In this document: piece by piece, positions 2,549 to 53,875 of the stretch | Layout: every line of letters begins with the position of its first letter | Position numbering within the stretch: position 1 is the first letter of the stretch | Assembly: GCA_018661775.1 (NCBI GenBank) | Contig: JABJHO010000014.1 | Span: 42,305 to 106,304 of the forward strand | Reading direction: 5' to 3' | Length of the DNA: 64,000 bases | Origin: Candidatus Magasanikiibacteriota bacterium | GTDB lineage: Bacteria; Patescibacteriota; Patescibacteriia; Magasanikbacterales; UBA922 | Notes under the pieces: generated by a model | Told to the model about the DNA's origin: nothing | Database searches by the model: none | Seen by the model: only the letters and a program-made list of their open reading frames with translations | Position numbers and translations under genes: made by a program

Positions 2549-4252
2549 TTATAACTTTTTTATCATATATGTGCCAACTTTTCTGTAACCAAGTTTTCTA
2601 TAATACCCACGAACACCAACACCCGAGATTACCGCACTTTTTTGTATTCCTGCGTTTTGTATTATTTCTTCGGCCACTTTCATGAGTTTTTTACCAAACC
2701 CTTTGTGTTGCGATGCCTGTTGTCTTTTTTCTCCAATTTTTACGAGCTGACCGTACACATGAAGTTCACGAATAAATGCACAGTGTGAAATTTCTGGGAT
2801 GATTTGTACAACATCTTTACAATGCGCTTTACTAAGCCATACATGTTGTTCTTTTTCCTTTTTGCCGATGTTGTGCGGGATACGGAGTCGTAGGAATCCA
2901 TACACAGCTATACGTTTTGGATCCTCAAGCGTAATAAAGTATTCTGTGCCACCTACTGTTGAGTATGTGTCTACAAAGAGCTGTGGTATCGTGTTTTTTG
3001 GTATATTGTCTTGCTGTCTTGAAATCTCTCTGCACCGCAAGCAGACACATCGCGCATTAGTGTTGTGTAGCTCTTTTGTGAGAGATTCTCGTAGGTTGGT
3101 TATACTGTTTCCGTCTCTAATTTCGTTAGATGGGATATCACGAATAAGTCGAGAAATTCTACAGTATCGTGGTGTAGCTTTTTTCATTGCAAGTAGTGCT
3201 GCAAACAATGCTTTTTCTCCGTATGATTTGTATCTTCCTTCCTTAAACCATGCATAGAGTTCAGCGCTTTCAATGACGGTGTTTGGATAAATCTTTACCA
3301 TGTCTGGGCAAAGTGCTGGATCAGAAAATAGTGATTTGTACATGGTTACATCGTGTTCTGGCGTGGTTCCTGGTAGGTCTGGCATAAAATGGAGATCAAC
3401 TTTGAACCCTGCACAGCGAAGCATATACATTGCTTTCCTGAATTCATCCACAGAGTGCCCACGCTTAATCAGTGATAAAATTGCATCATCTGGCGCCTGA
3501 AGACCAAGCTCTATTCTTGTGCATCCCTGTTTTCGCATGTGGTAGAGTGTTTTTGGTGTGATACAGTCTGGTCTTGTTTCAAGTGTAATTCCTATTATCC
3601 TATGTTTTGCATACTCATTGTACCGTTGTTCTTTTTCTATGCGTTGTGTCAACTCCTCAAGTGGCCGCTTTTCCCAGTACAACTCTTTTGTGGGGGGTAT
3701 TTCTTTTCTTCGTGTGAGGTTGTTGCATGCATTAAAAGACTCCATAATATACCAGTATTGGTATTTTAAGGTATAGGCATTCCATGTACCACCTTTTGTG
3801 ATGTATTCAATTTTATCTACCGGATGCCCATTCTTCTCAAGCATTTCAATCCTTTTTTGCATTAGAAGGTATGGGTTGAAATCGAGCTTGAGTGAGCGAG
3901 CTGCAGCAGGTTCTGAAGCAATATAGCTTTTTGGCATGCGTACTTCTGTTGGGCAGTAGACACACTTGCCTGGGCAAGCATATGGTTTTACTAGTGAAGT
4001 GATTACGGCAATCCCTGATGTACTTCGTATACCAGCTTTCATACATAATTGCTCTAATGCTCTATTTTGTACTACTTTCTTGTCTTTTACCAATTTCTTG
4101 TAGACACCAAGTATGGCCCTGTTTGAGGGTTGTGATATGTGAAGTGCACTACACTCCTTTCTTCGTATATCATCAAACTCACCTTTTGTTTTGGGCTTTT
4201 TTTGAATAATGGCATGTATGATCTGTGTAATGTGTTGTGTTGTTTCAGACAT
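2549..4252 (-). CDS. elp3: Elp3-like radical SAM / GNAT tRNA uridine(34) modification enzyme
   Basis: 567 aa. Radical-SAM CPGKCVYCP, GGTWNAY, and C-terminal GNAT block IRELHVYG..QHKGFGKKLM..GVRGYYRKLGY. Confidence 0.85.
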   Translation of the reverse strand: MSETTQHITQIIHAIIQKKPKTKGEFDDIRRKECSALHISQPSNRAILGVYKKLVKDKKVVQNRALEQLCMKAGIRSTSGIAVITSLVKPYACPGKCVYCPTEVRMPKSYIASEPAAARSLKLDFNPYLLMQKRIEMLEKNGHPVDKIEYITKGGTWNAYTLKYQYWYIMESFNACNNLTRRKEIPPTKELYWEKRPLEELTQRIEKEQRYNEYAKHRIIGITLETRPDCITPKTLYHMRKQGCTRIELGLQAPDDAILSLIKRGHSVDEFRKAMYMLRCAGFKVDLHFMPDLPGTTPEHDVTMYKSLFSDPALCPDMVKIYPNTVIESAELYAWFKEGRYKSYGEKALFAALLAMKKATPRYCRISRLIRDIPSNEIRDGNSITNLRESLTKELHNTNARCVCLRCREISRQQDNIPKNTIPQLFVDTYSTVGGTEYFITLEDPKRIAVYGFLRLRIPHNIGKKEKEQHVWLSKAHCKDVVQIIPEISHCAFIRELHVYGQLVKIGEKRQQASQHKGFGKKLMKVAEEIIQNAGIQKSAVISGVGVRGYYRKLGYRKVGTYMIKKL

Positions 4253-4310
4253 AGTACTTGTAATATAATCATGAATGTGCTATCTTAGTCAAGTCAAAAA
4301 GGATTATTTT

Positions 4311-5006
4311 ATGAATGAATATAGGGCAAAACAAATATTAGAGCAAAACCATGCGGTATATAACACCATCGCAGCGGATTTTTCACGAACCCGTGGATTT
4401 TTGTGGGCCGACCTACATCCGCTCAAGGAGTATGCAAAAGATGTGCACACCGTTGTTGATATTGGGTGTGGCAATGGTCGACTATATCAGCTTTTTTCTC
4501 ACATGGATGTGAATTATATCGGTATTGATTTTAGTGAAGAGCTTGTGGCTATTGCAAGGAATCGTTTTCCGGGGGCGCGGTTTTTTGTCTCAAACATGAT
4601 TAAAACTTCCTTACAAGACAGTATGGCCGATGTTATATACTGTATTGCAGCATTTCAGCATCTTCCAAGCAGAGAAATGCGTATCCAAGCACTTCAAGAG
4701 ATGCGCAGAGTGTTAAAGCCTGGTGGATCCATAGTTATGATGAATTGGAATCTTTTTAGTGACTGGGCACGAGAAAAATATGAAAGCGACGGGAGTGGAG
4801 ATTTTTTTGTACCTTGGAAAAATGAGGAAAAAGAGGTTTTGGGGTTGCGATACTACCATGGTTTTTTACTCGAAGAGCTTCATGAATTAGTACAGTCTGT
4901 TGGGCTAAATATAGTTAAACAACATTACTGTAAAAAAGGTGAAGTAAGTAGTCTGGGGCCTGGTGAAAATATACTTACCGTTATGCGAGCTGCCGAAGAT
5001 GTGTAG
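4311..5006 (+). CDS. Trm9/ALKBH8-like class I SAM-dependent methyltransferase
   Basis: ORF-track start is 4275. ATG 4311 is preferred because aaggA lies 7 nt upstream. Blocks VYNTIAADFSRTRGFLW, VVDIGCGNG, FFVPW and LRYYHGFLLEEL. Confidence 0.7.
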   Translation: MNEYRAKQILEQNHAVYNTIAADFSRTRGFLWADLHPLKEYAKDVHTVVDIGCGNGRLYQLFSHMDVNYIGIDFSEELVAIARNRFPGARFFVSNMIKTSLQDSMADVIYCIAAFQHLPSREMRIQALQEMRRVLKPGGSIVMMNWNLFSDWAREKYESDGSGDFFVPWKNEEKEVLGLRYYHGFLLEELHELVQSVGLNIVKQHYCKKGEVSSLGPGENILTVMRAAEDV

Positions 5007-5008: not shown

Positions 5009-5893
5009 TTATTTTCCTGAAATAATACAGGTGGTTGGAGTGGTAATACTCCAACCACTTTTTTTTGCTTTTATGAGCCCTGCAACACTTAATGCTTCAT
5101 TTGGTGTCACGGACTCTTGCAATTCATCTTCTAGTATTTTCTGTGCAGCCGCTATGTCTTCGTCGCTCACTATCCAGCCACTTCCCTTTGTTGTGTTCAC
5201 TATTTCTGTCACATTACTTTTTCTGTGTGCAATACGATCTCCGATGCACGTTGCAAGAGATTCTTTGGTTGGGGTAAAGTCATGGTCAAAATGTTTTGCG
5301 ATTGGGTAACATGCTGTGGTTTGTACAACATGTACTTGGGTCGGTAAGGAGTTGTGTGTAATGTATTCTCCGATACCTTGTGCGGTGGTACCAGAAGATG
5401 TGGCGATAAATATGGCACCCATATCGTTGTGTTGAGTAATCTCTCTTGCTAAGGGGTAGTATGATCGCGGCGCTAATCCATCGGTTGATTGTCGGAGATA
5501 TGCTACCCCAGCCTCTTTTCCGGCCATAAAAGCATTTTGTTTTGGCTGATCCACCTGTGTAATTGTAATATTTCTGTCGGTGGCAAGATGTGTGAGTGTG
5601 TCTTTTTTTTGCTGAGGTATTCTTTTACCAATATACACACCAAGCGAAAGCAGGTTATTTGGATGTTTGGTATTATGTTCTTTAATTGCTAAAATAGCTG
5701 CAATAGCAGCATTTCCGGTTGATGATATGGCAAACTTTTTCGTATCGTTTTGTGTATATTCCCGGTGTATCATTTCTGGAATGACCCGTCCTTTGTGTGA
5801 TTGGTATGGGCTAAGATCCTCTCTTTTAAGAAAAAGAGACGGGATGTTGAGTTGTTTTGCTAATTCTGGATGTGAAGATTGTGGAGTATTCAT
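5009..5893 (-). CDS. PLP-dependent enzyme, fold type II (TrpB/CysK/ThrC-like)
   Basis: 294 aa. LFLKREDLSPYQSHKGR (PLP-lysine context) and ISSTGNAAIAAI. Substrate not assignable. Confidence 0.55.
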   Translation of the reverse strand: MNTPQSSHPELAKQLNIPSLFLKREDLSPYQSHKGRVIPEMIHREYTQNDTKKFAISSTGNAAIAAILAIKEHNTKHPNNLLSLGVYIGKRIPQQKKDTLTHLATDRNITITQVDQPKQNAFMAGKEAGVAYLRQSTDGLAPRSYYPLAREITQHNDMGAIFIATSSGTTAQGIGEYITHNSLPTQVHVVQTTACYPIAKHFDHDFTPTKESLATCIGDRIAHRKSNVTEIVNTTKGSGWIVSDEDIAAAQKILEDELQESVTPNEALSVAGLIKAKKSGWSITTPTTCIISGK

Positions 5894-5976: not shown

Positions 5977-6141
5977 ATGAATCTTACCTGTATTGAGTGT
6001 AAAAATCAAGTTGATCTATCATCGTATTCTGACCTTGCTATGGACAGTGTGGTTGAGTGTCAGACGTGTGGCATAACATTGCTTGTGACGAGTATCGACG
6101 ATAACACCGTGTCTGTTGAAATAATGGACGAGGGAAAATAG
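5977..6141 (+). CDS. LysW-like zinc-ribbon protein (possible amino-group carrier)
   Basis: 54 aa from the internal ATG. Two CxxC knuckles (CIECKN..ECQTCG), ITLLV and an acidic tail EIMDEGK. Confidence 0.45.
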   Translation: MNLTCIECKNQVDLSSYSDLAMDSVVECQTCGITLLVTSIDDNTVSVEIMDEGK

Positions 6142-6142: not shown

Positions 6143-7537
6143 TTAGGTTATTGCTTTGCACACCATTTCTATCATACCCCGAAAACCGTGAGACCCAAGG
6201 AAGACTATTACGTCTTCTTTTTTGGTATGTTCAATAAGGTGTGTCACAAGTTCATTATCGTCTTCTATGTATTTTGTGTTTGGGTGTGTGGTCTCAATCA
6301 TGTCGGATAATGCTTTCCCATCCATGATTTCTGGTGTATTTGGCCCTTGTTTAACCGCGCTTAACCGAGGAATAATAACACTGTCTGCATGTGCAAATGC
6401 ATGAGCGTATTGCGGAACTGCTTCTTTATTTCGGTTTCCGGTGTTTGGTTCGTAAATGGCAATAATCTTGCCTGTATATATAGACCGCAATGTAGCAAGT
6501 GTTGCAGCTGCTTTTTCTGGAGAATGCGCAATATCATCAAACACGGTTATATTGTTTTCACACCGTTTTTCTAGTCGTCGTCTCATGCCCAAAAAAGTGC
6601 GTATGGATTGTGTGATGTTTTGTGGTTGTATACCAAGTTCACTAGCCATAGCAAATGCACCGCAAATATTTTCTACCATATATGTTCCAAGTAGTGGTGA
6701 GGTGATACTGTACGTAGAACTGTTATGGATTATGTCAAAATGAAGGCCATTTTTTGTACTAGTTATGTTGGTGTAGGAATACTCATTTTCTCCATCTTTT
6801 CCATAAAATACTACACGAGATTGAGATTGTTTTGCATATTCTTTTACATTTTTTCCATCTTTGCATGCAACAATAAGGCCATTTTTTGGCACAAGAGAAA
6901 CGAGGTGCTCAAATTGCTTCATGTATAATGCTTCTGTTGGGTACAGGTCTGCGTGGTCCCAAGAAATTGAAGTAAGCAGTAAATGAGTGGGGGAGTACAA
7001 CATAAACTTTGGTCGAGCATCCCATCGAGCTGTTTTATATTCATCTCCTTCAAGAACCGAATATGTACCATCAGTTATTGCTGCTGACGGGAAATTATGT
7101 GTAGCAAGTCCACCAAACATGTAGCTTGGCATATACTCATTTTCTTTGAGTATCCAAGACACTAAGGCAGATGTAGTTGTTTTTCCAAAGTTTCCGGCAC
7201 ACACAATAGAATGTTCTTTAACGAGAAATTCTGCGACAAATTCTGGATACGATTTGTATGCAATGTTGTTTTCTTGTACGTAGAGAAATTCCGGATTGGT
7301 GGAAGACGCGACATTTCCCACAATTACCAGATCAGGATTACCATGTTTGGTCATTTTTTCTACGTGCCAACCAGGGTAGTAGGTAATTCCGGCATTTTTG
7401 AGATGAGTAGAAACAGGCGGGTAAAACCCTTTGTCACTGCCAGTAACGGTATATCCTGTTTTGTGGAGCGCAATGGCTAGGGCGCTCATGGCTACGCCAC
7501 AAATACCTATAAAATGGATATGTTCGGTGTTGTTCAT
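6143..7537 (-). CDS. mpl: Mur ligase, Mpl subtype (UDP-MurNAc:tripeptide ligase-like)
   Basis: 464 aa. The N-terminus HFIGICGVAMSALAIAL..TGSDKGFYPPVSTHL matches the Mpl YPPMST signature. GNFGKTTT P-loop. Confidence 0.7.
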   Translation of the reverse strand: MNNTEHIHFIGICGVAMSALAIALHKTGYTVTGSDKGFYPPVSTHLKNAGITYYPGWHVEKMTKHGNPDLVIVGNVASSTNPEFLYVQENNIAYKSYPEFVAEFLVKEHSIVCAGNFGKTTTSALVSWILKENEYMPSYMFGGLATHNFPSAAITDGTYSVLEGDEYKTARWDARPKFMLYSPTHLLLTSISWDHADLYPTEALYMKQFEHLVSLVPKNGLIVACKDGKNVKEYAKQSQSRVVFYGKDGENEYSYTNITSTKNGLHFDIIHNSSTYSITSPLLGTYMVENICGAFAMASELGIQPQNITQSIRTFLGMRRRLEKRCENNITVFDDIAHSPEKAAATLATLRSIYTGKIIAIYEPNTGNRNKEAVPQYAHAFAHADSVIIPRLSAVKQGPNTPEIMDGKALSDMIETTHPNTKYIEDDNELVTHLIEHTKKEDVIVFLGSHGFRGMIEMVCKAIT

Positions 7538-7540
7538 AAT

Positions 7541-8203
7541 CTATAGTGTATTATCCAGTATATGCTTAAGCTCTTGCAAATCACCACTCCAATTCTTTCC
7601 GTCAAACCACTCGAGCCCGCTAAACTGTAATTTATACGTGTCACTTGGTCTTTGTGCTGAACCTAAATATATATATTTTTTTCCTGTTTCTTTTGCATAT
7701 AGTATGGCTTTGAGCATCATGCCCATACCAATGCTTTTGTTGGGAAAATCTAATGGATAAAAAGGATAGGAATAGTGAAGTATGTCAGTATTTTCATAGC
7801 AGACTGCATACCCAACTACGTCATCACTTTTTGTATACAGAAGGAGCATGGTAAAGTTTGTTTCTTCTGCGTTTGTAAGACATGATTTTACCGCATTGGC
7901 AGAAAATGTCCCTTTGCCAAACTTTTTTTCATAAAAATCTTTTGCACATTTTCCAATAGTCCAGTGGTAATCAGTATACGGAATAGGGTGGCTGGAAAGA
8001 GTAATATCTTCTGTTTTCCGTAAAATTCTTCTGTTTTCGCTTGTTAATACAAACGTATTCAAATCTATTCGTATACTTCGTGTTTGGTCCATTGCGCCTT
8101 TTCCTCGGCGGGTAAACACAAAACCATCGCTATATTTTTGGGTAATATTGTTTGAAACAGTATGTGTAAGTGTTTCTTGTTTCCAGGAAAAATAATCATT
8201 CAT
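7541..8203 (-). CDS. ATE/Bpt-like aminoacyl-tRNA--protein transferase family protein
   Basis: ORF-track start is 8233. ATG 8203 avoids overlap with the mraY stop. GFVFTRRG..RSIRIDLNTFVLTSENRRILRK and KKYIYLGSAQ..YKLQF resemble the ATE_C/Bpt core. The N-terminal Cys motif is absent. Confidence 0.5.
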   Translation of the reverse strand: MNDYFSWKQETLTHTVSNNITQKYSDGFVFTRRGKGAMDQTRSIRIDLNTFVLTSENRRILRKTEDITLSSHPIPYTDYHWTIGKCAKDFYEKKFGKGTFSANAVKSCLTNAEETNFTMLLLYTKSDDVVGYAVCYENTDILHYSYPFYPLDFPNKSIGMGMMLKAILYAKETGKKYIYLGSAQRPSDTYKLQFSGLEWFDGKNWSGDLQELKHILDNTL

Positions 8204-8207
8204 AGAA

Positions 8208-9356
8208 TTATTGTAGTGCAATCCATAGTCCAAGTAATACGACCATTGCGTGGATAATCCAAAAACGCATCACTGTTTTTTCTTCACTCCAACCGCGCAT
8301 TTCAAAATGGTGATGTAGTGGTGCCATTGCAAAAATACGTCTTCCCAATATGTATCGCCCAAAAATTTGTATAATGACACTGGCAAGTTCTACATAAAAA
8401 ATAAAACCAAGCAGCGGAAGAAGTAGCATGTGATTAATGACAATGGTGTTTATGGCAAGAAGTGACCCAAGACCAAGAGAGCCAACATCACCCATTTGGA
8501 ACCGCGCAGGCTTAATATTGAAATACGTGTACGTAAGCAACGCACCGGTTGTGGTCGCATTGAGTATGGCAATTTCTCCATATCCTTCTATCCAGCTTAA
8601 TATTGTGAGAGCAGAAAATGTAATAATGAGTGCTCCTCCTGCCAATCCATCCATACCGTCTGCCATATTTACTGCATTGGCAGTTGCCACGACAAAGAAT
8701 ATAACAAAGGGAATAATAAGCCAGCTAATGTCTATTGTTCCATCAAACGGAATGGCTATGTTTTGCCAATGCTTTCCAAGTTTTGCATAAATCCACCAGG
8801 CAGCAATGCCACCCGCAATACATTCAGTGAGTAATCTTTCGTGAACATGGAGCCCTTTTCCTGGATGTGAACCCAGCCAAAGTGACGTACGTTTAAAAAT
8901 TGACCACGGAAGGGTAATAATAAGCCAGATTCTATACCATATATTTTTGTGTACCTTAATGAGTGTAAAAATCTGCTTCAATTTTCTGTTTCGTCGTTTT
9001 TTCTCATTAAAAATATTGAGCCAGTCATCTACGCCACCAAGGATTGCCGAAAGAATCATAACCCCAACAGGTACCCAGGTAAAACTTCTCTCCCAGTTAA
9101 AGAGTATGGTAATAACCGCAACAGTTATAATGACGAGCAGTCCACCCATAATTGGTACGCCAGCTTTACTTTTTCGTGCGCCCATGGCAAGTGATGCGTC
9201 ATAATCTGGGTTTCTTACAATATTATGTTTATACAAAAAAGCAATCAGGAGTGGAGCCCAAATAAAAGATGCTATTGTGGCAAGTGCGCCAAAACCTATG
9301 GCGGTCTGTAATATGTGTATTGTGTCTGTAGGTATTATCATAATACTGTTCATCAT
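8208..9356 (-). CDS. mraY: Phospho-N-acetylmuramoyl-pentapeptide transferase
   Basis: 382 aa polytopic membrane protein. Motifs GGVDDW, NAVNMADGMDGLAGG and APLHHHFE. Confidence 0.9.
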   Translation of the reverse strand: MMNSIMIIPTDTIHILQTAIGFGALATIASFIWAPLLIAFLYKHNIVRNPDYDASLAMGARKSKAGVPIMGGLLVIITVAVITILFNWERSFTWVPVGVMILSAILGGVDDWLNIFNEKKRRNRKLKQIFTLIKVHKNIWYRIWLIITLPWSIFKRTSLWLGSHPGKGLHVHERLLTECIAGGIAAWWIYAKLGKHWQNIAIPFDGTIDISWLIIPFVIFFVVATANAVNMADGMDGLAGGALIITFSALTILSWIEGYGEIAILNATTTGALLTYTYFNIKPARFQMGDVGSLGLGSLLAINTIVINHMLLLPLLGFIFYVELASVIIQIFGRYILGRRIFAMAPLHHHFEMRGWSEEKTVMRFWIIHAMVVLLGLWIALQ

Positions 9357-9399
9357 AGCATAGAATACATACTATTTCAAGCTATGGGCTAAATATTTT

Positions 9400-10176
9400 T
9401 TATGTTATTAATCTGCGAATTTCTAAGATTTTTGCGCTTTTTGCACGGCCAAATGTTTCATTTGCTTCACCTATTTTTTCATGCTCTTGCCAGGTCTGCT
9501 GTGATAGATCTTTTTTTGTGTCTGTAACGGTAATGTTTCCCTGTCTAATACCATGATTGTATTTTCCATCTGCAAGCCACGCAAGACTGTGTGTATAATG
9601 AATTATTTTCGGTGCACCACCTTCGTAGTCTACTTGGTGCACAATAAGTATATGGTCAAGATCATGTCGTTTTCCTGTATCAAGCATAATAATGCAATCT
9701 CCAGGTTCTATAGTGTTAAGAGAGATCGTTTGGCTGTTTTTGTTGTCTGCCAAAACACGTACATTTGTATTTTCAATGGTGCGGAATTTTCTCACAAGCC
9801 GTCTCAATAGATTGTTGGTTTTTGGAAATGACAAACGTGTGTGCAATGGTTTTGTTGTTTGTGCAATCGTTTGGGCGTTGAGAATGTAATACGCAAGCCC
9901 CGAGCAGTCAATACCAATAGCATGATCTACAAGAAATTTTTTTACCTCTGTCTGAGAAAGTGTCGTAAGGTCAATATGTTTTTTTCTTGCAATAATTTCT
10001 ATTTCTTGCACAATATCTTCTACGGAACCTTTTCCTAAGTGCACACGCAAACCTGCCCGAACCTTTGTCTTTTTATTGTTCATGTACGGGCAAGCAACTG
10101 TGTGTTTTCCAATGGGCATGTGCAGATATGCTTCAATAATATCCATTGCTGGTTTCACTATTTTTTTTGTTGTCAT
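9400..10176 (-). CDS. NlpC/P60-superfamily cysteine peptidase-like protein, no signal peptide
   Basis: 258 aa. Candidate catalytic Cys in GIDCSGLAYYIL and His in DHILIVHQV, with PGDCIIM between them. Confidence 0.4.
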   Translation of the reverse strand: MTTKKIVKPAMDIIEAYLHMPIGKHTVACPYMNNKKTKVRAGLRVHLGKGSVEDIVQEIEIIARKKHIDLTTLSQTEVKKFLVDHAIGIDCSGLAYYILNAQTIAQTTKPLHTRLSFPKTNNLLRRLVRKFRTIENTNVRVLADNKNSQTISLNTIEPGDCIIMLDTGKRHDLDHILIVHQVDYEGGAPKIIHYTHSLAWLADGKYNHGIRQGNITVTDTKKDLSQQTWQEHEKIGEANETFGRAKSAKILEIRRLIT

Positions 10177-11435
10177 AAAGCGTTTTCTATAATGGTTACA
10201 ATCTTTTTTCCGAGTGCATTATATACACCATGTTTTGTCATAATGCTTTCTTTAGACTGAATGCGTAACAGGTCAGACCCTAGTGTGGTGGTTGTGTACG
10301 GGATAACAGAGAGCCCAGCTTGCTCAAGTGCTTTTTTTGTTTGCGTTACGTCTATGTCTTGTGCGTCTTTTGTGAGCCTGAGAACAAGTTGTGCCCCACG
10401 TGTTACAGGAACAAGTTTGTGATCTTTTGTTTCAAGGTTTGCCAGTGCTGCGACATGCGCTTCAAACGTTGTCATGAGATTTTTTACCTGTTTTGCTATG
10501 GATTGTTGCTGTAAGTGTGATTCAAAAATAACAGAAGCTGGTTGCCTTGCATTAATCTCCAAAAGATATACGTTTCCTGTTTCTTCTTCTACGATAATGT
10601 CTATCCCAAAAGCCCCGCGCCATCCATCGTGTTGCATTTTTTTTCCAACTGCATGGGCTATTTCTTTACACTTCGCCTGTTGATCATATGAGAGTATGTC
10701 TTTTGGAAGACCCCAGTCATTGCCGATGGTGGCAAAAGGTTGGTCGGTAAAAGGAGAGAGCCCAGTAATTTGGTAACTCAATGATCCTGTGTGGATCGCA
10801 TCTTTTGAGACAACGCCGTTGCAAGTAAACGTGGGGCCGTTAATATAGGCCGACACTTTTACCGGTCTTTCGGGAAATGTTTTTTGGAGTTCTTGTAGTT
10901 GTATTTCGCTGTCTATTAATACTGTTCCACTTCCGGTGTGTCCCTGGTTAAATTGCAATACAAATGGTTCATAATTCCATGCAATGTTTTTGCATACATC
11001 TATGTGGTGAGGGGGAAGATGTGTAGTCATTGTACCAAGCCACGCAACTTGTGAAATTTTCTCTTCTATGTTGCTTGCTAGGTTGGTAAGCGGGTTAAGT
11101 AGTGGGATATTATGTGTCTTGCAAATCCGCTCTATTTTTTTTGTAGGTTTGTATACCATAATACCACCAAATGCGTTTTCACCACATTCTTTGGTTTTTT
11201 TTGCAATGTACGCGAGTGATTTTGGATGCTCAAGGAGTTGCCAAGAATCCAAAAGTGTAGTAGTGTCAATGAGTACAATGTGTGACCTTTCTTGGGCATA
11301 TGATTTGGCAAACTCGGTCACATTTGAGATAATAGAAAAATCAGAGATAGACATGTCCATCCCCGATGCTCGCTCAAAAGAGCGATTTACATATATAATG
11401 TGGTGATTTTTAAGCCACGTGAGTAATTTTTCCAT
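10173..11435 (-). CDS. ATP-grasp ligase of unknown substrate
   Basis: Start moved to ATG 11435 (MEKLLTW). The track start 11624 overlaps murB. C-terminal block WRGAFGIDIIVEEETGNVYLLEINARQPAS. The stop overlaps the next gene's start by 4 nt. Confidence 0.6.
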   Translation of the reverse strand: MEKLLTWLKNHHIIYVNRSFERASGMDMSISDFSIISNVTEFAKSYAQERSHIVLIDTTTLLDSWQLLEHPKSLAYIAKKTKECGENAFGGIMVYKPTKKIERICKTHNIPLLNPLTNLASNIEEKISQVAWLGTMTTHLPPHHIDVCKNIAWNYEPFVLQFNQGHTGSGTVLIDSEIQLQELQKTFPERPVKVSAYINGPTFTCNGVVSKDAIHTGSLSYQITGLSPFTDQPFATIGNDWGLPKDILSYDQQAKCKEIAHAVGKKMQHDGWRGAFGIDIIVEEETGNVYLLEINARQPASVIFESHLQQQSIAKQVKNLMTTFEAHVAALANLETKDHKLVPVTRGAQLVLRLTKDAQDIDVTQTKKALEQAGLSVIPYTTTTLGSDLLRIQSKESIMTKHGVYNALGKKIVTIIENAL

Positions 11436-11489
11436 ATTTAGGCTTAGTATAGTAAAAAAAGCCGTTTTTTGCAACCTTTGATATATTTT

Positions 11490-12449
11490 ATGGATCCATT
11501 TTATACACAACTCAAAACCTACGGAAAAGTGCGATGTAATGAATCTTTGGCAAAGCATATTACGTATAAGATTGGTGGCCCTGCCAAGTATTTTGTGATT
11601 GTAAAAGATATGTCCCATCTCCAAGCGCTTTTGCAGTTTATTGACGGAGAAGGGGTAAAACGTATTATCTTGGGTGGAGGAAGTAATATATTATTTCCAG
11701 ATGAAGGTTTTGATGGGGTGGTAATACAGATTATTGATAAGACGTTCTCGATTTCTGGTCCCAAGGTGGAGGCAGTTGCAAGTGCACTGATGAAAGATAT
11801 TTCTGAGGCAACTGTTGCCGCAGGTTTGGCGGGTTTTGTTTGGGCAATTGGTGTTCCTGGAACTATAGCAGGTGCGTTGCGAGGTAATGCTGCGTATAAT
11901 GGGGTTGCAATGGGGGATGCTGTGTCCAGTGTGGAGGTGTACAGAGATGGAGAGGTGGTGCTGTTATCAAACCATGATTGTGTGTTTGGTCCAAAAGATT
12001 CAGTGTTTAAGCATAACAATGATGTGATTTTGCGTATTTGGCTTGCATTAAAAAAAGGAGAGAAGCAAAAGATTGCTCAAGAGGCAATGGAGAATATTTC
12101 ATATAGACAACGCACTCAGCCAGAAGGTAAAGGTTCAGCGGGTTGTGTATTTAAGAACATAGTTGTTGAAGAAAAAGATGTGGATAATTTTTTGGCAAAA
12201 TTTAATGATAAAAAAATACAGGAATGTATTACAAAATATCATAAAATTCCTGTTGGCCGTTTAATTGAATTACTTGGACTAAAGGGGACTGTTTCTGGGA
12301 ATGCACAGATTTCTGAGGTGCATGGTAATTTTGTGATTAATTTGGGCGGTGCAAGTGCAAAAGATGTGTGCATCTTAATTGAACTTATACGGGAAAACGT
12401 GTACAATACCTATGGGTTTGAATTAGAGGAGGAAATTCAAATTGTTTAA
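11490..12449 (+). CDS. murB: UDP-N-acetylenolpyruvoylglucosamine reductase
   Basis: ESLAKHITYKIGGPAKYF, ILGGGSNILF and GSAGCVFKN blocks. Confidence 0.85.
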   Translation: MDPFYTQLKTYGKVRCNESLAKHITYKIGGPAKYFVIVKDMSHLQALLQFIDGEGVKRIILGGGSNILFPDEGFDGVVIQIIDKTFSISGPKVEAVASALMKDISEATVAAGLAGFVWAIGVPGTIAGALRGNAAYNGVAMGDAVSSVEVYRDGEVVLLSNHDCVFGPKDSVFKHNNDVILRIWLALKKGEKQKIAQEAMENISYRQRTQPEGKGSAGCVFKNIVVEEKDVDNFLAKFNDKKIQECITKYHKIPVGRLIELLGLKGTVSGNAQISEVHGNFVINLGGASAKDVCILIELIRENVYNTYGFELEEEIQIV

Positions 12450-15817: not shown

Positions 15818-17854
15818 ATGAACAATCAAGAAGGGACAAAGCGCGTAAGAATGCGTTGGGGAATGGTAAGTATTACTATTTGTTTTTTGGCTATGCTCGG
15901 GTTTATATTCCCGAAGTATACAAATGTTGCTATTAACAATATTAATTCTTTGGCATATCTAGGATTACCAAACATATCGGAAGAGTCTTTTCGGTTGGGT
16001 CTAGATTTGCAAGGCGGTGCACATTTAATATATGAGGCAGACGTACAACACGTGGCAATCGAAGATCGTGCAACTGCAGTAGAAGGTGTGCGAGATGCGG
16101 TTGAGCGCCGAGTAAACGGGACGGGAGTTTCTGAACCAAATGTCCAAACAGCGCGTGTGGGTGAGGCATATAGGCTTATTGTTGATCTTCCAGGTATTGA
16201 AAATGTAAATGAAGCAATAAAACTTATAGGGGAGACACCGGTGCTAGAATTTAAGGAAGAAAATGATGTACCATCAAGGGAGCTTAATGAAGAAGAGAGA
16301 GAGTTAATAACACAAACAAATAGTACAGCAAAATCACGTTCAGAGGAGATAGCAGCCCGAGTGGCAGGTGGTGAGTCTTTTGAAGAGCTTGTTTCTGAGC
16401 TTTCTGAAGACACGATCACAAAAAATAATGGAGGGAGTTTGGGAAATGTTGAGGCAGGTCTGAGTATAACAGGCCCACTTTATGATTGGGCGAAGACTCA
16501 TGTGGATGGGGACATTTCTGAAACACCAATAGAAACAGAGCTGGGATATCACGTTGTAAAGCGCGGGAAAGATGGTGAGTCAAAAGAAAAAGTTTCAGCG
16601 AGCCATATACTAATCTGTTATTTTGGTGCACAGGGTTGTGAAGATGAAACATACACAAAAGAGTCGGCACTAGAAAAAGCACAAGAACTTTTTACTCAAG
16701 CAAATGCTGAAAATTTTGCTGATTTAGCAAAAGAATTTTCTACTGGACCAAGTAAGGGTGCGGGTGGGGACCTTGGTTCTTTTGGGCGCGGTATGATGAT
16801 ACCTGCGTTTGAAGAGGTAGTGTTTTCTGCAGAAGTGGGACAAATTGTAGGGCCAGTTGAAACTGATTTTGGGTATCATGTGATTTATAAGACCGATGTG
16901 GAGGAGGTTGCAACGTATGGCCTTGCTCATATTATGAGTAAAAAGCTAACAGAAAGAGAAGTTCTCCCACCGCAGGATTCATGGAAATCAACAGAGCTTT
17001 CCGGAAAACAACTTGAGCGGGCGGACGTTGCTATTGATCCGCAAACAGGTGCCGTACAAGTTTCTCTTGTTTTTGATAAGGAAGGAAAAAAACTATTTGA
17101 AGATATTACACGAAGAAACCTTAATAAACCTGTTGCAATCTTTTTAGATGGCTCTCCTATTAGTATACCAACAGTTCAGGCCGTCATCGGTGGAGGGGAG
17201 GCGGTGATTACTGGATCATTTACCATTCCAGAAGCAAAACTTTTATCTCAAAGACTTAATACGGGTGCATTACCTGTTCCTATTACTCTTGTATCCCAGC
17301 AGGCTATTGGTGCAAGTTTGGGGGCCGAATCACTGGTAAAGAGTTTGCATGCCGGAATAATTGCTATTATATTGGTAATGCTCTTTATGGTTCTGTATTA
17401 TAGATTACCAGGGGTACTGGCAGTTATTTCTTTAAGCATATATATTGTTGCTGCACTTGCTATTTTTAAATTAATAGGCGTGACATTGACACTAGCTGGA
17501 ATTGCTGGATTTATCCTCTCTATTGGTATGGCGGTTGATGCAAATGTACTGATTTTTGAAAGAATGAAGGAGGAGCTGCGCGAAGGGAAGAGTTTGAAAG
17601 TTGCGGTGGAAGAAGGGTTTGTGCGTGCGTGGACATCTATACGAGATGGAAATATTTCAACACTTATTACCTGTGTATTGTTGGTTGGGTTTGGTGCAAG
17701 TTTTGTTCAGGGGTTTGCTGCAACATTGTCAATTGGTATTTTATTGAGCATGTTTTCGGCGATTACCATTACACGATTGTTTTTGCGTGCAATAGTGCCA
17801 CTATTTTCTCGGTACGGCAATAGACTCTTTTTAGGATTTACTGAAAAAAAATAA
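15818..17854 (+). CDS. secD: Protein translocase subunit SecD with an inserted parvulin-type PPIase region
   Basis: 678 aa. SecD blocks LGLDLQGGAHL, VSEPNVQ and the C-terminal 6-TM core, with a PpiC-like segment (residues ~258-360) in the periplasmic P1 domain. Confidence 0.9.
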   Translation: MNNQEGTKRVRMRWGMVSITICFLAMLGFIFPKYTNVAINNINSLAYLGLPNISEESFRLGLDLQGGAHLIYEADVQHVAIEDRATAVEGVRDAVERRVNGTGVSEPNVQTARVGEAYRLIVDLPGIENVNEAIKLIGETPVLEFKEENDVPSRELNEEERELITQTNSTAKSRSEEIAARVAGGESFEELVSELSEDTITKNNGGSLGNVEAGLSITGPLYDWAKTHVDGDISETPIETELGYHVVKRGKDGESKEKVSASHILICYFGAQGCEDETYTKESALEKAQELFTQANAENFADLAKEFSTGPSKGAGGDLGSFGRGMMIPAFEEVVFSAEVGQIVGPVETDFGYHVIYKTDVEEVATYGLAHIMSKKLTEREVLPPQDSWKSTELSGKQLERADVAIDPQTGAVQVSLVFDKEGKKLFEDITRRNLNKPVAIFLDGSPISIPTVQAVIGGGEAVITGSFTIPEAKLLSQRLNTGALPVPITLVSQQAIGASLGAESLVKSLHAGIIAIILVMLFMVLYYRLPGVLAVISLSIYIVAALAIFKLIGVTLTLAGIAGFILSIGMAVDANVLIFERMKEELREGKSLKVAVEEGFVRAWTSIRDGNISTLITCVLLVGFGASFVQGFAATLSIGILLSMFSAITITRLFLRAIVPLFSRYGNRLFLGFTEKK

Positions 17855-18852: not shown

Positions 18853-19014
18853 ATGACAGACAATTTTATTCGTCATCTTATAGCATTTCTTGTGGTGCTT
18901 ATTTGTCTTATTATTTTTAGTGTTGGATATATGTCCGGAATACGAGGTTGGTGGTTTTCTGGCTTTACTCTTTTGTTTGTGTACATAATTATCTACAAAC
19001 TTGTTGATGTGTAA
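18853..19014 (+). CDS. Small two-helix membrane protein (53 aa), not in the ORF track
   Basis: ATG 18853. Translation MTDNFIRHLIAFLVVLICLIIFSVGYMSGIRGWWFSGFTLLFVYIIIYKLVDV*. The TAA stop lies one nucleotide before the next ATG. Confidence 0.45.
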   Translation: MTDNFIRHLIAFLVVLICLIIFSVGYMSGIRGWWFSGFTLLFVYIIIYKLVDV

Positions 19015-19015
19015 T

Positions 19016-20434
19016 ATGGAAGTAGTCCCTTTATTAAACATATCATCTATTCTAGGAGCCATAGGCAGTAATCCTATGGAAGTTTTTGTGTCAATATTTA
19101 TTTTTTTTGGATACGCCATACTATTTTATACTTTGTGCAAGGCAGTGCTTGAACTATATGTAGATTATAGGCAAAAAAAAAATACACAATCTTGGAATTT
19201 TGTTGTTTTGGCAATAGATATTCCTCCAATGAATATTCAAACCCCAAAAGCGGTTGAACAATTGTTTGCGCATTTGGCGGGTATTTTTAGTAAGCCAAAT
19301 ATTGCTGCAAAATTCCGTGGTGGCCATGTACAGAGGTCTTTTAGTTTTGAAATAGTGAGTATTGACGGATATATACAATTTCTTGTGCATACAGAAGAAG
19401 AGTACAGGGAACTTGTTGAGGCTGCGCTCTATGCGCAATACCCTAACGCTGAAATTACACAAGTAGAAGATTATGTGCAGAAGATTCCAGATAGGTATCC
19501 TCATGAAGAATATGATATTTGGGCTACAGATATTGGATTGGCCGAACACAGTGCATATCCAATTCGGATGTATTCTGATTTTGAACACAAAAACTCGGAA
19601 GAAGAGGTGTTAAAAGATCCAATGAGTGCTTTGCTCGAGAGCTTTTCTCGCATAGGGTCTGGTGAACAGATCTGGTTGCAAATAATAGTAGAGCCAATAT
19701 CGAGTAAGTGGAAAGAAGATGTTATCGAAAAAATCAATGAAGTGTTGGGTAATGTTTCGGTTTCCGGGGCTGGGCCAGGTTCACGTTTTTTTTCCTCTAT
19801 TTCAACAATAATAGGGCAGTTGTTTTTTCATATTTTTGGAGGAGAAGAGACTGCCACTTCGGCTGATACCAGGTCAGAGATATCTTCAGGTTTGTCTCCA
19901 GGCGTCTCTAATGCTGTTCAAGGCATGGAAGAAAAAATGACAAAGGTTGGTTTAAAAACTAACATGCGTGCGGTGTATATAGGAAGAAAGGATAACTTTT
20001 CACCTCAGCGTGGTATCAATGCACTTTTAGGGTCTTTGAATCAGTTTAGTATACCCACAGCCAATGCTATTGTTCCTACGTATGGTGTTTCAACATCATA
20101 TTTTAAGGCAGAAAAGCGTAGTAACCAGAAAAAGAATGTATTAATGGAGCATTATAAAAAAAGAAAAATCAGTATTAAAAAAGGACCCAAACCATATATT
20201 TTAAATGTTGAGGAGCTTGCAAGTATTTGGCATTTCCCACTTTCACATGTAAAAACACCGCTATTACAGGTTGTGGCCTCAAAACCTTCTGAACCACCAG
20301 TTGGTTTGCCAATAGAAATGAGCAGTGGTATGGGTGGTTCTTCACAGGGAGTCGATCTTTCTGGTGTTTTTCTCCCTAAGGAGGGTGAACCAGATGCATA
20401 TAGTGGGCCACCGCCAAACCTACCTTTTGGGTAG
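19016..20434 (+). CDS. Membrane-anchored protein of unknown function (472 aa)
   Basis: ATG 19016 is preferred over the TTG at 19001. One N-terminal TM helix, a large soluble body, and a Gly/Pro-rich tail. No family signature I can name with confidence. Confidence 0.6.
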   Translation: MEVVPLLNISSILGAIGSNPMEVFVSIFIFFGYAILFYTLCKAVLELYVDYRQKKNTQSWNFVVLAIDIPPMNIQTPKAVEQLFAHLAGIFSKPNIAAKFRGGHVQRSFSFEIVSIDGYIQFLVHTEEEYRELVEAALYAQYPNAEITQVEDYVQKIPDRYPHEEYDIWATDIGLAEHSAYPIRMYSDFEHKNSEEEVLKDPMSALLESFSRIGSGEQIWLQIIVEPISSKWKEDVIEKINEVLGNVSVSGAGPGSRFFSSISTIIGQLFFHIFGGEETATSADTRSEISSGLSPGVSNAVQGMEEKMTKVGLKTNMRAVYIGRKDNFSPQRGINALLGSLNQFSIPTANAIVPTYGVSTSYFKAEKRSNQKKNVLMEHYKKRKISIKKGPKPYILNVEELASIWHFPLSHVKTPLLQVVASKPSEPPVGLPIEMSSGMGGSSQGVDLSGVFLPKEGEPDAYSGPPPNLPFG

Positions 20435-26915: not shown

Positions 26916-28082
26916 TTATTCTTTATACACTATATTTAGGTGTGAATATTTTTGCTCCATAATGACCAAATCTTCTTCTGAAAATTTATTTCTATCAATC
27001 AGTACTTTGCCCGTAACAATATCAGGTAGAACTAGCCCATCTGTTGTCGTGAGACCCAAGAGTATGAGATCGCCATCGATTGTTTTTGGAAAAGTAACAC
27101 CTTCTGCTGATTTAAGTTCCCATGTTACTATACTTCCTATGATGGTTTCAGGTAATAGTATGTTGGTGGCTTTCTCTAGGTTGAAAAGATGTATACTTCC
27201 TATTAAGGTTTTTGGAAATTGCACAGTATGTGCTGTCTTGAGTCGATCCATAGAAATGAGCCCATTAACACCGTCTTGTGGAAATACTACATTATGAACT
27301 GACTCAAGACCAATTAAGTTTAACTTACCATGTACTGTTTTGGGAAATTCTAGTCCATCTATTTCAGTGAGTGAAGACATACAAAGACTACCATTAACAG
27401 TTTCGGGTAGTACTAACTTTTCTGTGGAAAGGAGGTAGAATAGCAGAAGATCGCCATGTATTATTTTTGGGAGCGTAAGTGTTTTTGCAGATGTTACTTG
27501 TAGTTGAAGGTCACCATTTACTATTTCTGGACATGTTATCCTTTTGTCTTCATCAATGCGTTCGGGACTAAGGTTGCCATAGTGGTATTTTATTTTACCT
27601 TTCAAAATGGTATTTTCTAAAAAGTTTTTATTTTTGGTTTCTGTGTAAGAGCTTATCTGATCCTCTGTGAAACCAGTAAGTCGAGATATATCCTCTTTAA
27701 AATTATGGATGTCTATAGGAAAATTACGATATGTAGTATCAAGACTAAACGGACCTTTGCCTTCTTTAAAACCCGTCACACCCCCGCTGTTGTTGTATAT
27801 TATGTGTAAATCATTTATTGGTGTGTCTTTAGTAATTCTATCACCATTAATTTTTTTCTTTATTTCTTGAATACGTTGTGTTTTTTTTGCCACTTTCTCC
27901 CATCTTTTTAGTTTAAGTCGTAAGAATGAAGATGTATTAAATACCTGCTCTATGTTTCTTTTTCGTTCTCGTATATTTTCGATATCACCACCTGATTCAA
28001 TAAGAGTCTTAAATTCTTCTAATTTTAGGTTTTGCATTGCTTTTAGCATTTTTTTTATGTCTCTACACTCTTCTTGAGCCAT
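26916..28082 (-). CDS. Repeat protein: coiled-coil N-terminus plus nine ~21-aa LRR-like repeats
   Basis: 388 aa. The Pro of the (L/F)P(K/E)T(I/V)xGxLxL unit recurs at residues 185, 205, 226, 247, 268, 290, 311, 332 and 353. No signal peptide. Confidence 0.7.
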   Translation of the reverse strand: MAQEECRDIKKMLKAMQNLKLEEFKTLIESGGDIENIRERKRNIEQVFNTSSFLRLKLKRWEKVAKKTQRIQEIKKKINGDRITKDTPINDLHIIYNNSGGVTGFKEGKGPFSLDTTYRNFPIDIHNFKEDISRLTGFTEDQISSYTETKNKNFLENTILKGKIKYHYGNLSPERIDEDKRITCPEIVNGDLQLQVTSAKTLTLPKIIHGDLLLFYLLSTEKLVLPETVNGSLCMSSLTEIDGLEFPKTVHGKLNLIGLESVHNVVFPQDGVNGLISMDRLKTAHTVQFPKTLIGSIHLFNLEKATNILLPETIIGSIVTWELKSAEGVTFPKTIDGDLILLGLTTTDGLVLPDIVTGKVLIDRNKFSEEDLVIMEQKYSHLNIVYKE

Positions 28083-42010: not shown

Positions 42011-42185
42011 GTTTTACCTCCATGGGTTTTTAAGGTGTACTCAAAACATATCATAAAATAAGTATTTTGTCAAGTAAGTATGTGTATATTTTATCTTTAA
42101 ATTACGTATATGTAAATGCATACGAATCATATTTTCTATACATAATCCTTGCATGTTTTGTCTATTTTTGCTAAAGTATTCTGTT

Positions 42186-43007
42186 ATGAAACAAAAAAAT
42201 TTCTCAAAAGCACCGATACAACGCTCTCTCCTACGACGTATTCTTGGGCGAGTGTATTTTTGGTGTCGTCGTATATGGTATTGGCACATGAGTGGTCGTG
42301 CATTTGCAACCTCTCGTTCTACAAAGCTTCTTCCGCATAGAGTATTTTCACATAAGACTGTATTGTTGCGAAAATTAAAGGATGTGGATATGTGGATGCA
42401 ACATAATAAGGTTGTTAATCTTAATATTGCTACACAAAAAATAGACGGTCTTGTAATTCGCCCCGGAGAAACCTTTTCGTTTTGGCGGCAGGTTGGTAAC
42501 ACAACCACAAGAAAAGGGTATGTGTCTGGTATGGAACTGTTTAATGGTACTGTACGAAGTGGTGTTGGTGGTGGTTTGTGTCAGTTAAGTAATTTAGTAT
42601 ACTGGATGACCCTTCATACGCCACTTGATGTGGTGGAGCGGTGGCGACACGGGTATGACGTGTTTCCTGATGTGCACCGTACCCAACCTTTTGGGAGTGG
42701 TGCAACCTGCTCGTATCCGAATATTGATTTACAAATACAAAATAACACACCCCATACATTTCAATTATCTACTTGTCTTTCTGACACTCATCTTGTTGGA
42801 AGCTGGCACTGTTCTCGTCACATAAAAGAGCAGTATGAGATTTATGAAAAAGAACATAGTATTGCTCACGAGGTTTGGGGAGGGTATACACGGAGTAATA
42901 CACTGTATCGTAAGGTGGTTGACGTCGACACAAAGCAATTACTCAATGATTATTTTGTCGTAGAAAATAACGCAATTATGATGTATACGCCGTTTCTCAA
43001 AGAGTAA
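42186..43007 (+). CDS. VanW-family protein
   Basis: GVGGGLCQLSNLVYW and ATCSYPNIDLQ. ATG 42186 is preferred over the track start 42153. Confidence 0.7.
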   Translation: MKQKNFSKAPIQRSLLRRILGRVYFWCRRIWYWHMSGRAFATSRSTKLLPHRVFSHKTVLLRKLKDVDMWMQHNKVVNLNIATQKIDGLVIRPGETFSFWRQVGNTTTRKGYVSGMELFNGTVRSGVGGGLCQLSNLVYWMTLHTPLDVVERWRHGYDVFPDVHRTQPFGSGATCSYPNIDLQIQNNTPHTFQLSTCLSDTHLVGSWHCSRHIKEQYEIYEKEHSIAHEVWGGYTRSNTLYRKVVDVDTKQLLNDYFVVENNAIMMYTPFLKE

Positions 43008-51591: not shown

Positions 51592-51668
51592 GCAAAAGAG
51601 AGTTTTTTTGATTTTGCTTGTGGATAACATGAGTAAAAATATTGTACAGCACGAAAAATTGCGGTACA

Positions 51669-51698
51669 ATGGGAAGAGGTGGGGAAAAGTGGGGATTG
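51669..51698 (+). promoter_or_regulatory. Putative MraZ operator: three direct repeats with 10-bp phasing
   Basis: aTGGGAagag / gTGGGGaaaa / gTGGGGattg at 51669, 51679 and 51689, flanked by two TACAAT -10-like hexamers (51665-51670 and 51701-51706). Lies 37 nt upstream of the mraZ ATG. Confidence 0.6.
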
Positions 51699-51734
51699 AG
51701 TACAATGCTTGTCTACTCATATTTCACTTTTGTT

Positions 51735-52166: not shown

Positions 52167-52178
52167 TTTTTTTACATT

Positions 52179-53516: not shown

Positions 53517-53873
53517 ATGTGGATATTAGCCATACAACGCTTGTGTTTTGAGTTTATTTTTGACATACTCTTTTTTCCGTTTTGGTGGTATAGTGCAGGA
53601 CTTCTTCGTGTTGTTATTTGGGCACAGCAAATGATTGCGAGAGTGAATCAACAATTTGCTCCAGGATTGTGGATCAAAAATTTGTTTGTGCCAATGTTTG
53701 GGCAAACAGATAGGCAAGGAAGGTTGATGAGTGTATTTATGCGATTCGCGAATTTTGTTGGTCGATCAATTGCATTATTTATTTGGACTGTGCTTGTGAT
53801 TGGTTTGGTTCTACTATGGGTGATATTGCCAATCCTTTTTGTTTTGGGAGCAATAGACGCGTTGACCATCTAA
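53517..53873 (+). CDS. Membrane protein of unknown function
   Basis: 118 aa from ATG 53517. FFPFWWY motif and two or three TM helices. Its stop is 2 nt before the Clp-like gene. Confidence 0.5.
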   Translation: MWILAIQRLCFEFIFDILFFPFWWYSAGLLRVVIWAQQMIARVNQQFAPGLWIKNLFVPMFGQTDRQGRLMSVFMRFANFVGRSIALFIWTVLVIGLVLLWVILPILFVLGAIDALTI

Positions 53874-53875
53874 CT

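Follow-up and report, generated by a model that had tools for sequence, protein, structure and literature searches.

The window, a 64-kb stretch from a Patescibacteria (candidate phyla radiation, CPR) genome, carries a compact gene cluster on the minus strand (6143–11435) in which MraY is surrounded by an unusual set of enzymes: an Mpl-clade Mur ligase, a predicted aminoacyl-tRNA-dependent transferase of the ATE/Bpt fold, an NlpC/P60-fold amidase or peptidase, and an ATP-grasp ligase. The arrangement is not due to chance. It is a deeply conserved Patescibacteria cluster, found in Magasanikbacteria, Paceibacteria/Parcubacteria, and their relatives. The Patescibacteria form a large group of bacteria that are ultra-small and uncultured. 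Few bacterial pathways are as conserved or as well studied as peptidoglycan precursor synthesis, carried out by MurA–F and MraY, which is also a major antibiotic target. We read the cluster as a lineage-specific peptidoglycan-precursor pathway in which the stem peptide would be tailored by tRNA-dependent and ATP-grasp chemistry. That the cluster serves precursor synthesis in a lineage-specific way is the part held with more confidence; the full mechanism set out below we regard as evenly poised between right and wrong. A LysW-like mini-protein and a pyridoxal phosphate (PLP) enzyme are conserved partners of the cluster that were overlooked in an earlier reading of the window, made from the sequence alone (the sequence-only reading).

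The nearest named homologs of the window proteins come from Candidatus Magasanikbacteria, and proteins identical to those of the window are present on contigs of GCA_018658985.1 and GCA_018700615.1. In transcription order, the minus-strand run begins with the ATP-grasp ligase gene (10173–11435), encoding 420 amino acids (aa) from an ATG at 11435 in agreement with public gene calls; a longer open reading frame (ORF) from a TTG would extend to 11624 and overlap murB. The stop of this gene overlaps by 4 nt (10173–10176) the gene for a 258-aa cytoplasmic cysteine amidase or peptidase of the NlpC/P60 fold (9400–10176). Next come MraY, the phospho-MurNAc-pentapeptide translocase (8208–9356, 382 aa), the 220-aa ATE/Bpt-fold transferase (7541–8203) after a spacer of 4 nt, and the 464-aa Mpl-clade UDP-MurNAc ligase (6143–7537) after a spacer of 3 nt. 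The gene for MurB, the UDP-N-acetylenolpyruvoylglucosamine reductase, lies on the plus strand (11469–12449), divergent from the five-gene run. At the other end, the 54-aa ORF of the LysW-like zinc-ribbon protein, a possible carrier protein, abuts the ligase stop codon on the opposite strand (5977–6141, plus), and beyond it lies the gene for a 294-aa fold-type II PLP enzyme of the PALP family (5009–5893, minus). ORF analysis confirmed the layout given in the sequence-only reading, with five closely spaced minus-strand genes and a divergent murB, and every peptide motif quoted there was found in these ORFs. Its five enzyme-family assignments likewise stood up to profile, structure-prediction, and fold searches. 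Scans for promoters and terminators returned counts equal to those of shuffled controls.

Relatives were gathered with an alignment search of the ATE-like protein against GTDB species representatives, which gave 341, and 80 loci were fetched from Magasanikbacteria, Paceibacteria/Parcubacteria, Taylorbacteria, and the "Patescibacteria group." The synteny counts are conditional on the presence of the ATE-like gene and enough flanking sequence. Many of the third-party annotation records of metagenome-assembled genomes that hold the cluster (L007, L009, L010, L012, and others) are titled "uncultured Gammaproteobacteria bacterium," which is probably mislabeled taxonomy.

Across these loci, mraY is directly upstream of the ATE-like gene in every case (71/71) and the Mpl-like ligase gene is downstream of it in every case (66/66), with typical gaps of a few nucleotides or 4-nt overlaps. 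The ATP-grasp and NlpC/P60-like genes are found upstream of mraY in 51 of 59 loci, and murB is the divergent neighbor in 42 of 55. Wherever all five genes are present (51 loci), they have the same order and strand, at protein identities of 31–77%, the most divergent loci being at 31–50%. Conservation of the gene order, proposed as a check in the sequence-only reading, is thus complete among these loci, and it is reinforced by two kinds of gene fusion. The ATE-like transferase and the ligase are fused in frame into proteins of 680–685 aa in two loci (L032:386–2443 and L073:7998–10040), the two fusions being 59% identical to each other. In-frame fusions of the ATP-grasp and NlpC/P60 proteins (628–676 aa) occur in five loci (L068:3853–5850, L069:3939–5969, L052:4045–6027, L054:1305–3266, and L088:5122–7008), with 41–47% identity between lineages (L052/L054, L068, L069, and L088). 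Because synteny and the two kinds of fusion tie pairs of genes together, the cluster resolves into two modules: module A is the ATP-grasp and amidase pair by murB, and module B is MraY, the transferase, and the ligase. Genes have been inserted between members, including ones for an S-adenosylmethionine (SAM) methyltransferase, a RimK-like ATP-grasp protein, a pentapeptide-repeat protein, and a NUDIX hydrolase, without any change in the order. The inserts that separate the ATE-like gene from the ligase are the RimK/LysX-like ATP-grasp gene (L037:8647–9561 and L042:8642–9556), the SAM methyltransferase gene (L013:8787–9476, L081:10711–11403, and L088:9319–10011), and the pentapeptide-repeat gene (L081:8677–10698). 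A NudE-like NUDIX hydrolase gene is found between the ligase and PLP genes in about 25 loci.

The ligase has the N, M, and C Mur_ligase domains and is closer to Mpl than to MurC by each comparison with individual proteins. It scores 224 bits against E. coli Mpl (31% identity over the full length) and 114 bits against E. coli MurC, and its top PDB match is Psychrobacter Mpl (3hn7, 181.6 bits, with the best MurC at 143.8 bits). The same holds for all 74 orthologs, which have medians of 191 and 123 bits and a median difference of +70 bits, and IMG annotates the orthologs as Mpl. Assignment to the Mpl subtype rather than MurC, as first suggested from the N terminus, is therefore borne out. The TIGR models are less decisive, with 272.6 bits for mpl (TIGR01081, cutoff 388.7) and 272.0 bits for murC (TIGR01082, cutoff 335.1), both below cutoff. 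Das et al. 2011 list sequence features unique to Mpl (PMC3060825). Like Mpl of E. coli (b4233) and Psychrobacter arcticus (3HN7), the ligase has the GICG.xM, GSDxxxYPPxS, and RRRLE motifs, the Tyr of E(A/G)DEY that only Mpl has (here EGDEY, in the context EGDEYk.arwD..pKF), and the Mpl-only insert before the DHAD motif. The insert is diverged, with TARWDARPK in place of (S/T)AFFDKRSK (5/9 residues matching), and the SGP motif of Mpl is SYP. In the C-terminal set of proposed tripeptide-binding residues, RR is kept, while FAHH, EPRSNT, and SNG are replaced by the family-specific IAHS, EPNtGnR, and SHG.

The C-terminal motif fEPNtGnR is strongly conserved in the family and matches neither EPRSNT of Mpl nor QPHRFTR of MurC, so the sequence does not reveal whether the enzyme salvages tripeptides. 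The enzyme is best described as an Mpl-clade ligase with its own specificity motif, whose substrate its residues do not disclose. It resembles MurC in its three-domain architecture, its place next to murB and mraY (and in a division and cell wall, or dcw, run in L057), and an Arg that aligns with Arg380 of MurC, a residue that binds the carboxylate of L-Ala (PMC3060825). Of the L-Ala-binding residues of MurC (H. influenzae numbering), only the Arg380 position is conserved, with His376-Arg377 replaced by Asn-Thr; the ligase differs from MurC in lacking this His-Arg pair of QPHR(F/Y)xR, in carrying the Mpl-type insert, and in its lower scores. It differs from Mpl in context, as it is found with mraY, murB, and dcw genes in monoderm-type reduced genomes without recycling genes nearby and is possibly the sole MurC-type ligase of those genomes. 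Mpl itself accepts L-Ala weakly, and overexpressed E. coli mpl complements a murC(ts) mutant (PMC3060825).

Mur and dcw genes were sought with E. coli MG1655 MurC, MurD, MurE, MurF, Ddl, MurG, FtsW, and FtsI as queries in the window and in flanks of ±8–10 kb around the related loci, about 1.2 Mb of flanks in all. The E. coli queries were used because phmmer with the window ligase as query was too insensitive for paralogs and missed MurD. In two loci (L057 and L058), the core is inside a dcw-type run of ftsI, HAD, murF, mraY, the ATE-like gene, and the ligase gene, with the FtsI and MurF genes directly upstream of mraY. MurE was found in L037 and MurD in six loci, all relatives with the same cluster. 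The presence of MurD, MurE, and MurF near the cluster indicates that a stepwise pathway exists in the group, and by these homologies the canonical route is not replaced. The window and the flanks showed no further MurC-type gene and no Ddl, MurG, or FtsW, and, given the lack of another MurC-type gene there, the Mpl-like ligase most likely stands in for MurC. The proposal in the sequence-only reading of a salvage route instead of the usual murC-D-E-F run is therefore only partly upheld: the murD, murE, and murF genes of relatives speak against it, and the Mpl-like ligase occupies the place expected of a MurC. The head of a dcw cluster is found elsewhere in the window as a mraZ–rsmH pair (51642–53105, plus), detached from fts and mur genes. 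It is followed by genes for a ClpA/ClpB-like AAA+ protein (53783–56650, plus) and a WecA-like GT4 phosphotransferase (56672–57742, plus). With no fts or mur genes after mraZ–rsmH, the dcw cluster is split in this genome.

The 220-aa transferase scores 33.6 bits against Pfam ATE_C, a GNAT domain (cutoff 25), and many homologs have precomputed PF04377 annotations. The fold match is full length and includes the ATE N-terminal part, with about 166 residues aligned with FemX-type proteins and 210 with ATE1; these results support the ATE/Bpt-like label first given to the protein. A profile search of the PDB with the ATE-like family gave no ATE1 match, and the protein has no Pfam match to FemAB (PF02388) or ATE_N. 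The likeness to N-degron transferases has limits. Among NCBIfam arginyltransferase (Bpt-type) models, the best match reaches 63.7 bits where 170 is required, and unlike ATE1 and Bpt, the protein lacks the Cys4 zinc site of ATE_N, there being no invariant Cys in the family. It is also unlike FemX, MurM, and the FemABX group, which have a tandem GNAT architecture of about 330–420 aa, in being half the size, with a single GNAT domain and an ATE-type N-terminal part. In automated annotation, IMG gives "arginyl-tRNA--protein transferase" for the transferase and NCBI gives "GNAT family" and, for the ligase, "Mur ligase family protein."

Directly after the last GNAT strand, Tyr190-Lys191 is invariant in the family. 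In Ate1 the pair Y303-K304 is essential and its FemX counterpart is F304-K305 (PMC9351520), and judging from position, Tyr190-Lys191 would correspond to this catalytic pair. The acceptors of ATE and Bpt enzymes are the alpha-amines of acidic N-terminal residues, Asp or Glu (PMC9351520). An invariant Arg32 in the motif GFVFTRxGKG may correspond to Arg80 of Ate1, which serves the acidic acceptor. The transferase is always found between mraY and the Mur ligase gene and is sometimes fused to the ligase, which suggests that its acceptor is probably a wall precursor or small peptide and not a protein N terminus.

The ATP-grasp protein is recognized by Pfam ATP-grasp_3 (24.4 bits, cutoff 23.2), as are 25 of 26 orthologs (best E = 4.8e-9). 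An hhalign comparison with E. coli DdlB gave a probability of 73%, covering the ATP-grasp core only, and a profile search of the PDB gave no match. Assignments as Ddl (TIGR01205, 15.8 bits against a cutoff of 245) and as a RimK/LysX-type enzyme were tried and rejected, in both cases finding generic core similarity only. By these comparisons the protein belongs to a divergent family without a close characterized relative.

Its partner, the 258-aa protein, scores 18.3 bits against NlpC/P60 (PF00877), below the cutoff of 23 (E = 0.0024), and one homolog (P0127) has a precomputed PF00877 annotation. Its predicted structure has the papain-like alpha+beta fold, in which a conserved Cys lies at the N terminus of a helix and a His on a beta-strand. 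The original description of a signal-peptide-less NlpC/P60-like protein holds at the level of fold. No soluble protein of the cluster has a signal peptide, so all of them would act in the cytoplasm. The protein is unlike the YkfC/MepS-type gamma-D-Glu-diamino-acid endopeptidases in its subthreshold sequence similarity, in a conserved N-terminal domain of about 85 aa unique to the family, and in the translational coupling or fusion of its gene to that of the ATP-grasp ligase. The pair may be compared in architecture with glutathionylspermidine synthetase/amidase, a bifunctional ligase and papain-like amidase, with the ligase first and the amidase second in the pair described here. In role, it may be compared with a D-aspartate ligase; ATP-grasp ligases build the D-amino-acid cross-bridges of peptidoglycan, according to the statement in PMC2922099 that cites Bellais 2006. 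No sequence relationship was detected between the pair and either glutathionylspermidine synthetase/amidase or the Aslfm-type D-aspartate ligase.

The 54-aa protein exceeds the cutoff for Pfam Zn_ribbon_LysW (PF21344, 30.8 bits, cutoff 27) and scores 21 bits against NF041070 (cutoff 75). Of 64 loci, 61 have its gene, in each case downstream of the ligase and on the other strand, and all 71 LysW-like copies have DEGK as the C terminus. A full scan of 1.84 billion representative proteins recovered 33 representatives related to it, nearly all of 41–90 aa, and 18 of the 20 inspected end in (D/E)EGK. These features mark a small and distinct subfamily. It shares with LysW the small Cys4 zinc-ribbon fold and a short, conserved acidic tail, and departs from it in that the DEGK tail ends in Lys (the LysW tail is EDWGE), in the absence of LysZ, LysY, LysJ, and LysK partners from the cluster, and in having a threonine-synthase-like PLP enzyme as its partner. 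That enzyme matches Pfam PALP (92 bits) and no NCBIfam subfamily (38 bits or less). The best PDB matches to its profile are threonine synthases (59.7 bits), followed by Ser/Thr dehydratases and Ser/Asp racemases; a single-sequence search of the PDB found no match. In the invariant motif SHKGR, the Lys is aligned with that of GSFKDRG in threonine synthase, a residue that we take to be the PLP Schiff-base lysine. The PLP gene was found in 60 of 64 loci, where it and the LysW-like gene point away from each other across a median gap of about 77 nt. The two are found beside the ligase in about 95% of related loci, and they stay together even when displaced from it (L017 and L020).

MraY and MurB are the core cell-wall enzymes of the cluster. 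MraY falls just under the cutoff of TIGR00445 (190.5 bits, cutoff 192.05), has the Glycos_transf_4 domain, and aligns with E. coli MraY at 30% identity and in the DD, NxxNxxDGxDGL, and HHH motifs. About 36 aa are inserted behind its conserved VDD loop when it is set against the E. coli protein, and the loop that leads to the catalytic His region is shorter. The second GT4 protein of the window (56672–57742) was considered as the true MraY and rejected as WecA-like, scoring 105 bits to wecA and 58 to mraY. MurB has the MurB_C and FAD_binding_4 domains and passes TIGR00179 (189 bits, cutoff 144.5).

In the pathway that we favor, the Mpl-like enzyme would act as the equivalent of MurC, placing the first residue (L-Ala, or a short peptide) onto UDP-MurNAc, and the stem would be completed by MurD, MurE, and MurF, encoded nearby or elsewhere. 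The ATE-like enzyme would then use an aminoacyl-tRNA to extend the stem peptide by an amino acid at a free amino group, doing with another family of that fold what FemX and MurM do. An ATP-dependent amide would be installed, and then edited or removed, by the ATP-grasp/amidase pair; a side branch with a D-amino acid or a gamma-glutamyl-type link are candidates. MraY would form lipid I from the product, and the LysW-like protein and PLP enzyme would probably supply or modify an amino acid for the pathway. Several points weigh against this scheme. The consistent Mpl-likeness of the ligase, seen in the Mpl-only insert and the median of +70 bits, is unexplained if it only adds L-Ala. Where the transferase is part of a fusion, its partner is the ligase of the first step and not a late-step enzyme, and the amine used by ATE and Bpt enzymes is the alpha-amine of an N-terminal acidic residue rather than a Lys epsilon-amine (PMC9351520). 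The ATP-grasp enzyme has no characterized relative in the PDB profile search, and the loci were picked for having the ATE-like gene. The inventory covers the window and flanks, and a canonical MurC, Ddl, or FemABX may lie elsewhere in the genome.

The chief rival is a peptide-first route, by salvage or alternative assembly, which sharpens the idea in the sequence-only reading. The ATE-like enzyme, with Ala-tRNA, would put L-Ala on the amine of D-Glu or of a gamma-D-Glu-diamino-acid peptide, an acceptor that the ATP-grasp ligase would make or that the NlpC/P60 enzyme would free from muropeptides scavenged from a host; the Mpl-like ligase would join the preformed L-Ala-peptide en bloc to UDP-MurNAc, with MurF and MraY finishing the precursor. 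Such a route explains better the placement of the ligase in the Mpl clade, Mpl being the IMG label as well, and not with MurC. It fits better as well with the fusion to the first ligase and with the acceptor preference, since the fused proteins would catalyze consecutive steps, known ATE/Bpt acceptors are N-terminal Asp or Glu (PMC9351520), and Arg32 may match the acidic-acceptor Arg80 of Ate1. By chemical logic, the transferase product would bear the new N-terminal amine needed by a Mur ligase, and the ligase directly beside mraY in L057 and L058 is MurF rather than MurE or MurD. The MurD and MurE homologs of relatives that share the cluster stand against a peptide-first route, as they show that the stepwise route is not replaced, as does the pattern in the ligase, where the peptide-binding residues of Mpl (EPRSNT, SNG, and FAHH) are not conserved and the Arg aligned with MurC Arg380 is (PMC3060825). 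No AmpG-, AmpD-, or LdcA-type genes for muropeptide uptake or amide cleavage were seen in the cluster. On balance we think this route unlikely. A related proposal, which we hold to be decidedly improbable, is that tRNA-dependent entry into the Mur pathway replaces MurC chemistry, with the start of the stem built or salvaged off the sugar nucleotide. Here an ATE/Bpt-type enzyme and Ala-tRNA would cap a D-Glu acceptor provided by the ATP-grasp/NlpC-P60 pair, possibly with the LysW-like carrier and PLP enzyme, and the Mpl-type ligase, at times fused to the transferase, would attach the preformed peptide to UDP-MurNAc.

Two further explanations place the emphasis away from the ligase and transferase. 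The DEGK protein could be a scaffold of the amino-group-carrier type, loaded by the ATP-grasp enzyme (as LysX does), with the PLP enzyme modifying the cargo and the NlpC/P60 amidase releasing it (as LysK does), to yield an unusual diamino or D-amino acid for incorporation into the stem by the Mur ligases. LysW/LysX/LysK and CysO/CysM/Mec+ provide precedents for carrier-protein pathways. The wide distribution of the LysW-like gene (61/64), its invariant tail, its tight pairing with the PLP gene, and its above-cutoff zinc-ribbon score all suit a carrier, as does the RimK/LysX-like ATP-grasp gene inserted into the cluster in L037 and L042. However, the cluster's own ATP-grasp enzyme falls outside the RimK/LysX type, the last residue of the tail is Lys where known carriers use Glu, and the LysW-like gene is on the opposite strand. 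Kinase, reductase, and aminotransferase partners are absent from the cluster, and the LysW-like/PLP pair stays with the ligase where ATP-grasp and NlpC/P60 genes are absent nearby (L057, L013, and L051); a carrier pathway has a slim chance of being correct. An equally slim chance attaches to the view that the neighbors share no pathway. Under it, the ATE-like protein would simply be a Bpt-type transferase of an N-degron pathway, an unrelated small molecule would be the substrate of the ATP-grasp/NlpC-P60 pair, and the genes would only be fellow travelers of murB and mraY in compact genomes. Unrelated downstream genes are also syntenic (Elp3-like in 28 loci and serine hydroxymethyltransferase, SHMT, in 12), the ClpA/ClpB-like AAA+ protein of the window could serve an N-degron pathway, and the promoter and terminator scans were uninformative. 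Co-travel accounts poorly for in-frame fusion of the transferase to a Mur ligase in two divergent genomes, for the adjacency of MraY, the ATE-like protein, and the ligase in 100% of loci with few-nucleotide gaps or 4-nt overlaps, and for an order that is never broken in spite of insertions between genes. The Bpt models are also far below cutoff (64 against 170 bits), and the Cys4 site is missing.

Other genes of the window were noted in passing. Downstream of the cluster are genes for a 567-aa Elp3-like radical-SAM and GNAT protein (2549–4252, minus), a SAM methyltransferase (4275–5006, plus), and SHMT (1257–2513, minus), all syntenic in related loci at the counts given above for the first and last. 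A VanW-like protein (42153–43007, plus; vanW-gen 187 bits, cutoff 365) belongs to a family linked to glycopeptide-resistance clusters, here in a genome that is reduced. SecD is fused to two PpiC-type rotamase domains (15818–17854, plus), and a single 789-aa protein combines glucose-6-phosphate dehydrogenase and 6-phosphogluconate dehydrogenase (44885–47254, plus). Long ORFs without Pfam or NCBIfam matches are found at 19001–20434 (plus, 477 aa), 26916–28082 (minus, 388 aa), and 58804–60174 (plus, 456 aa).

A search of the full-text literature found no description of the cluster, of Mpl in CPR bacteria or of an Mpl-type ligase taking the place of MurC there, of an ATE/Bpt-type enzyme in wall synthesis, of the DEGK protein, or of LysW-like proteins in CPR bacteria, in keeping with the earlier remark that the combination was not known to have been described. 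The type of pathway is already known, and the individual parts have been labeled by automated annotation (IMG and NCBI); the enzyme set and its linkage are what is new. Across much of the Patescibacteria/CPR, no MurC-type enzyme other than the Mpl-like one is linked to dcw genes, and this one is bound by synteny, and sometimes by fusion, to an ATE/Bpt-type transferase. murB is likewise tied to an uncharacterized ATP-grasp/NlpC-P60 pair, and a LysW-like mini-protein and PLP enzyme ride along. Four of the enzyme activities are directly testable. If tRNA-dependent entry into the Mur pathway proved true, it would replace MurC chemistry in a major bacterial radiation. The reading that we favor, a lineage-specific peptidoglycan-precursor pathway, predicts a wall peptide with noncanonical residues or a noncanonical order of assembly. 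In it the ATE/Bpt family would serve a purpose other than protein degradation, and the reading may bear on the supply of D-amino acids and diamino acids in host-dependent cells.

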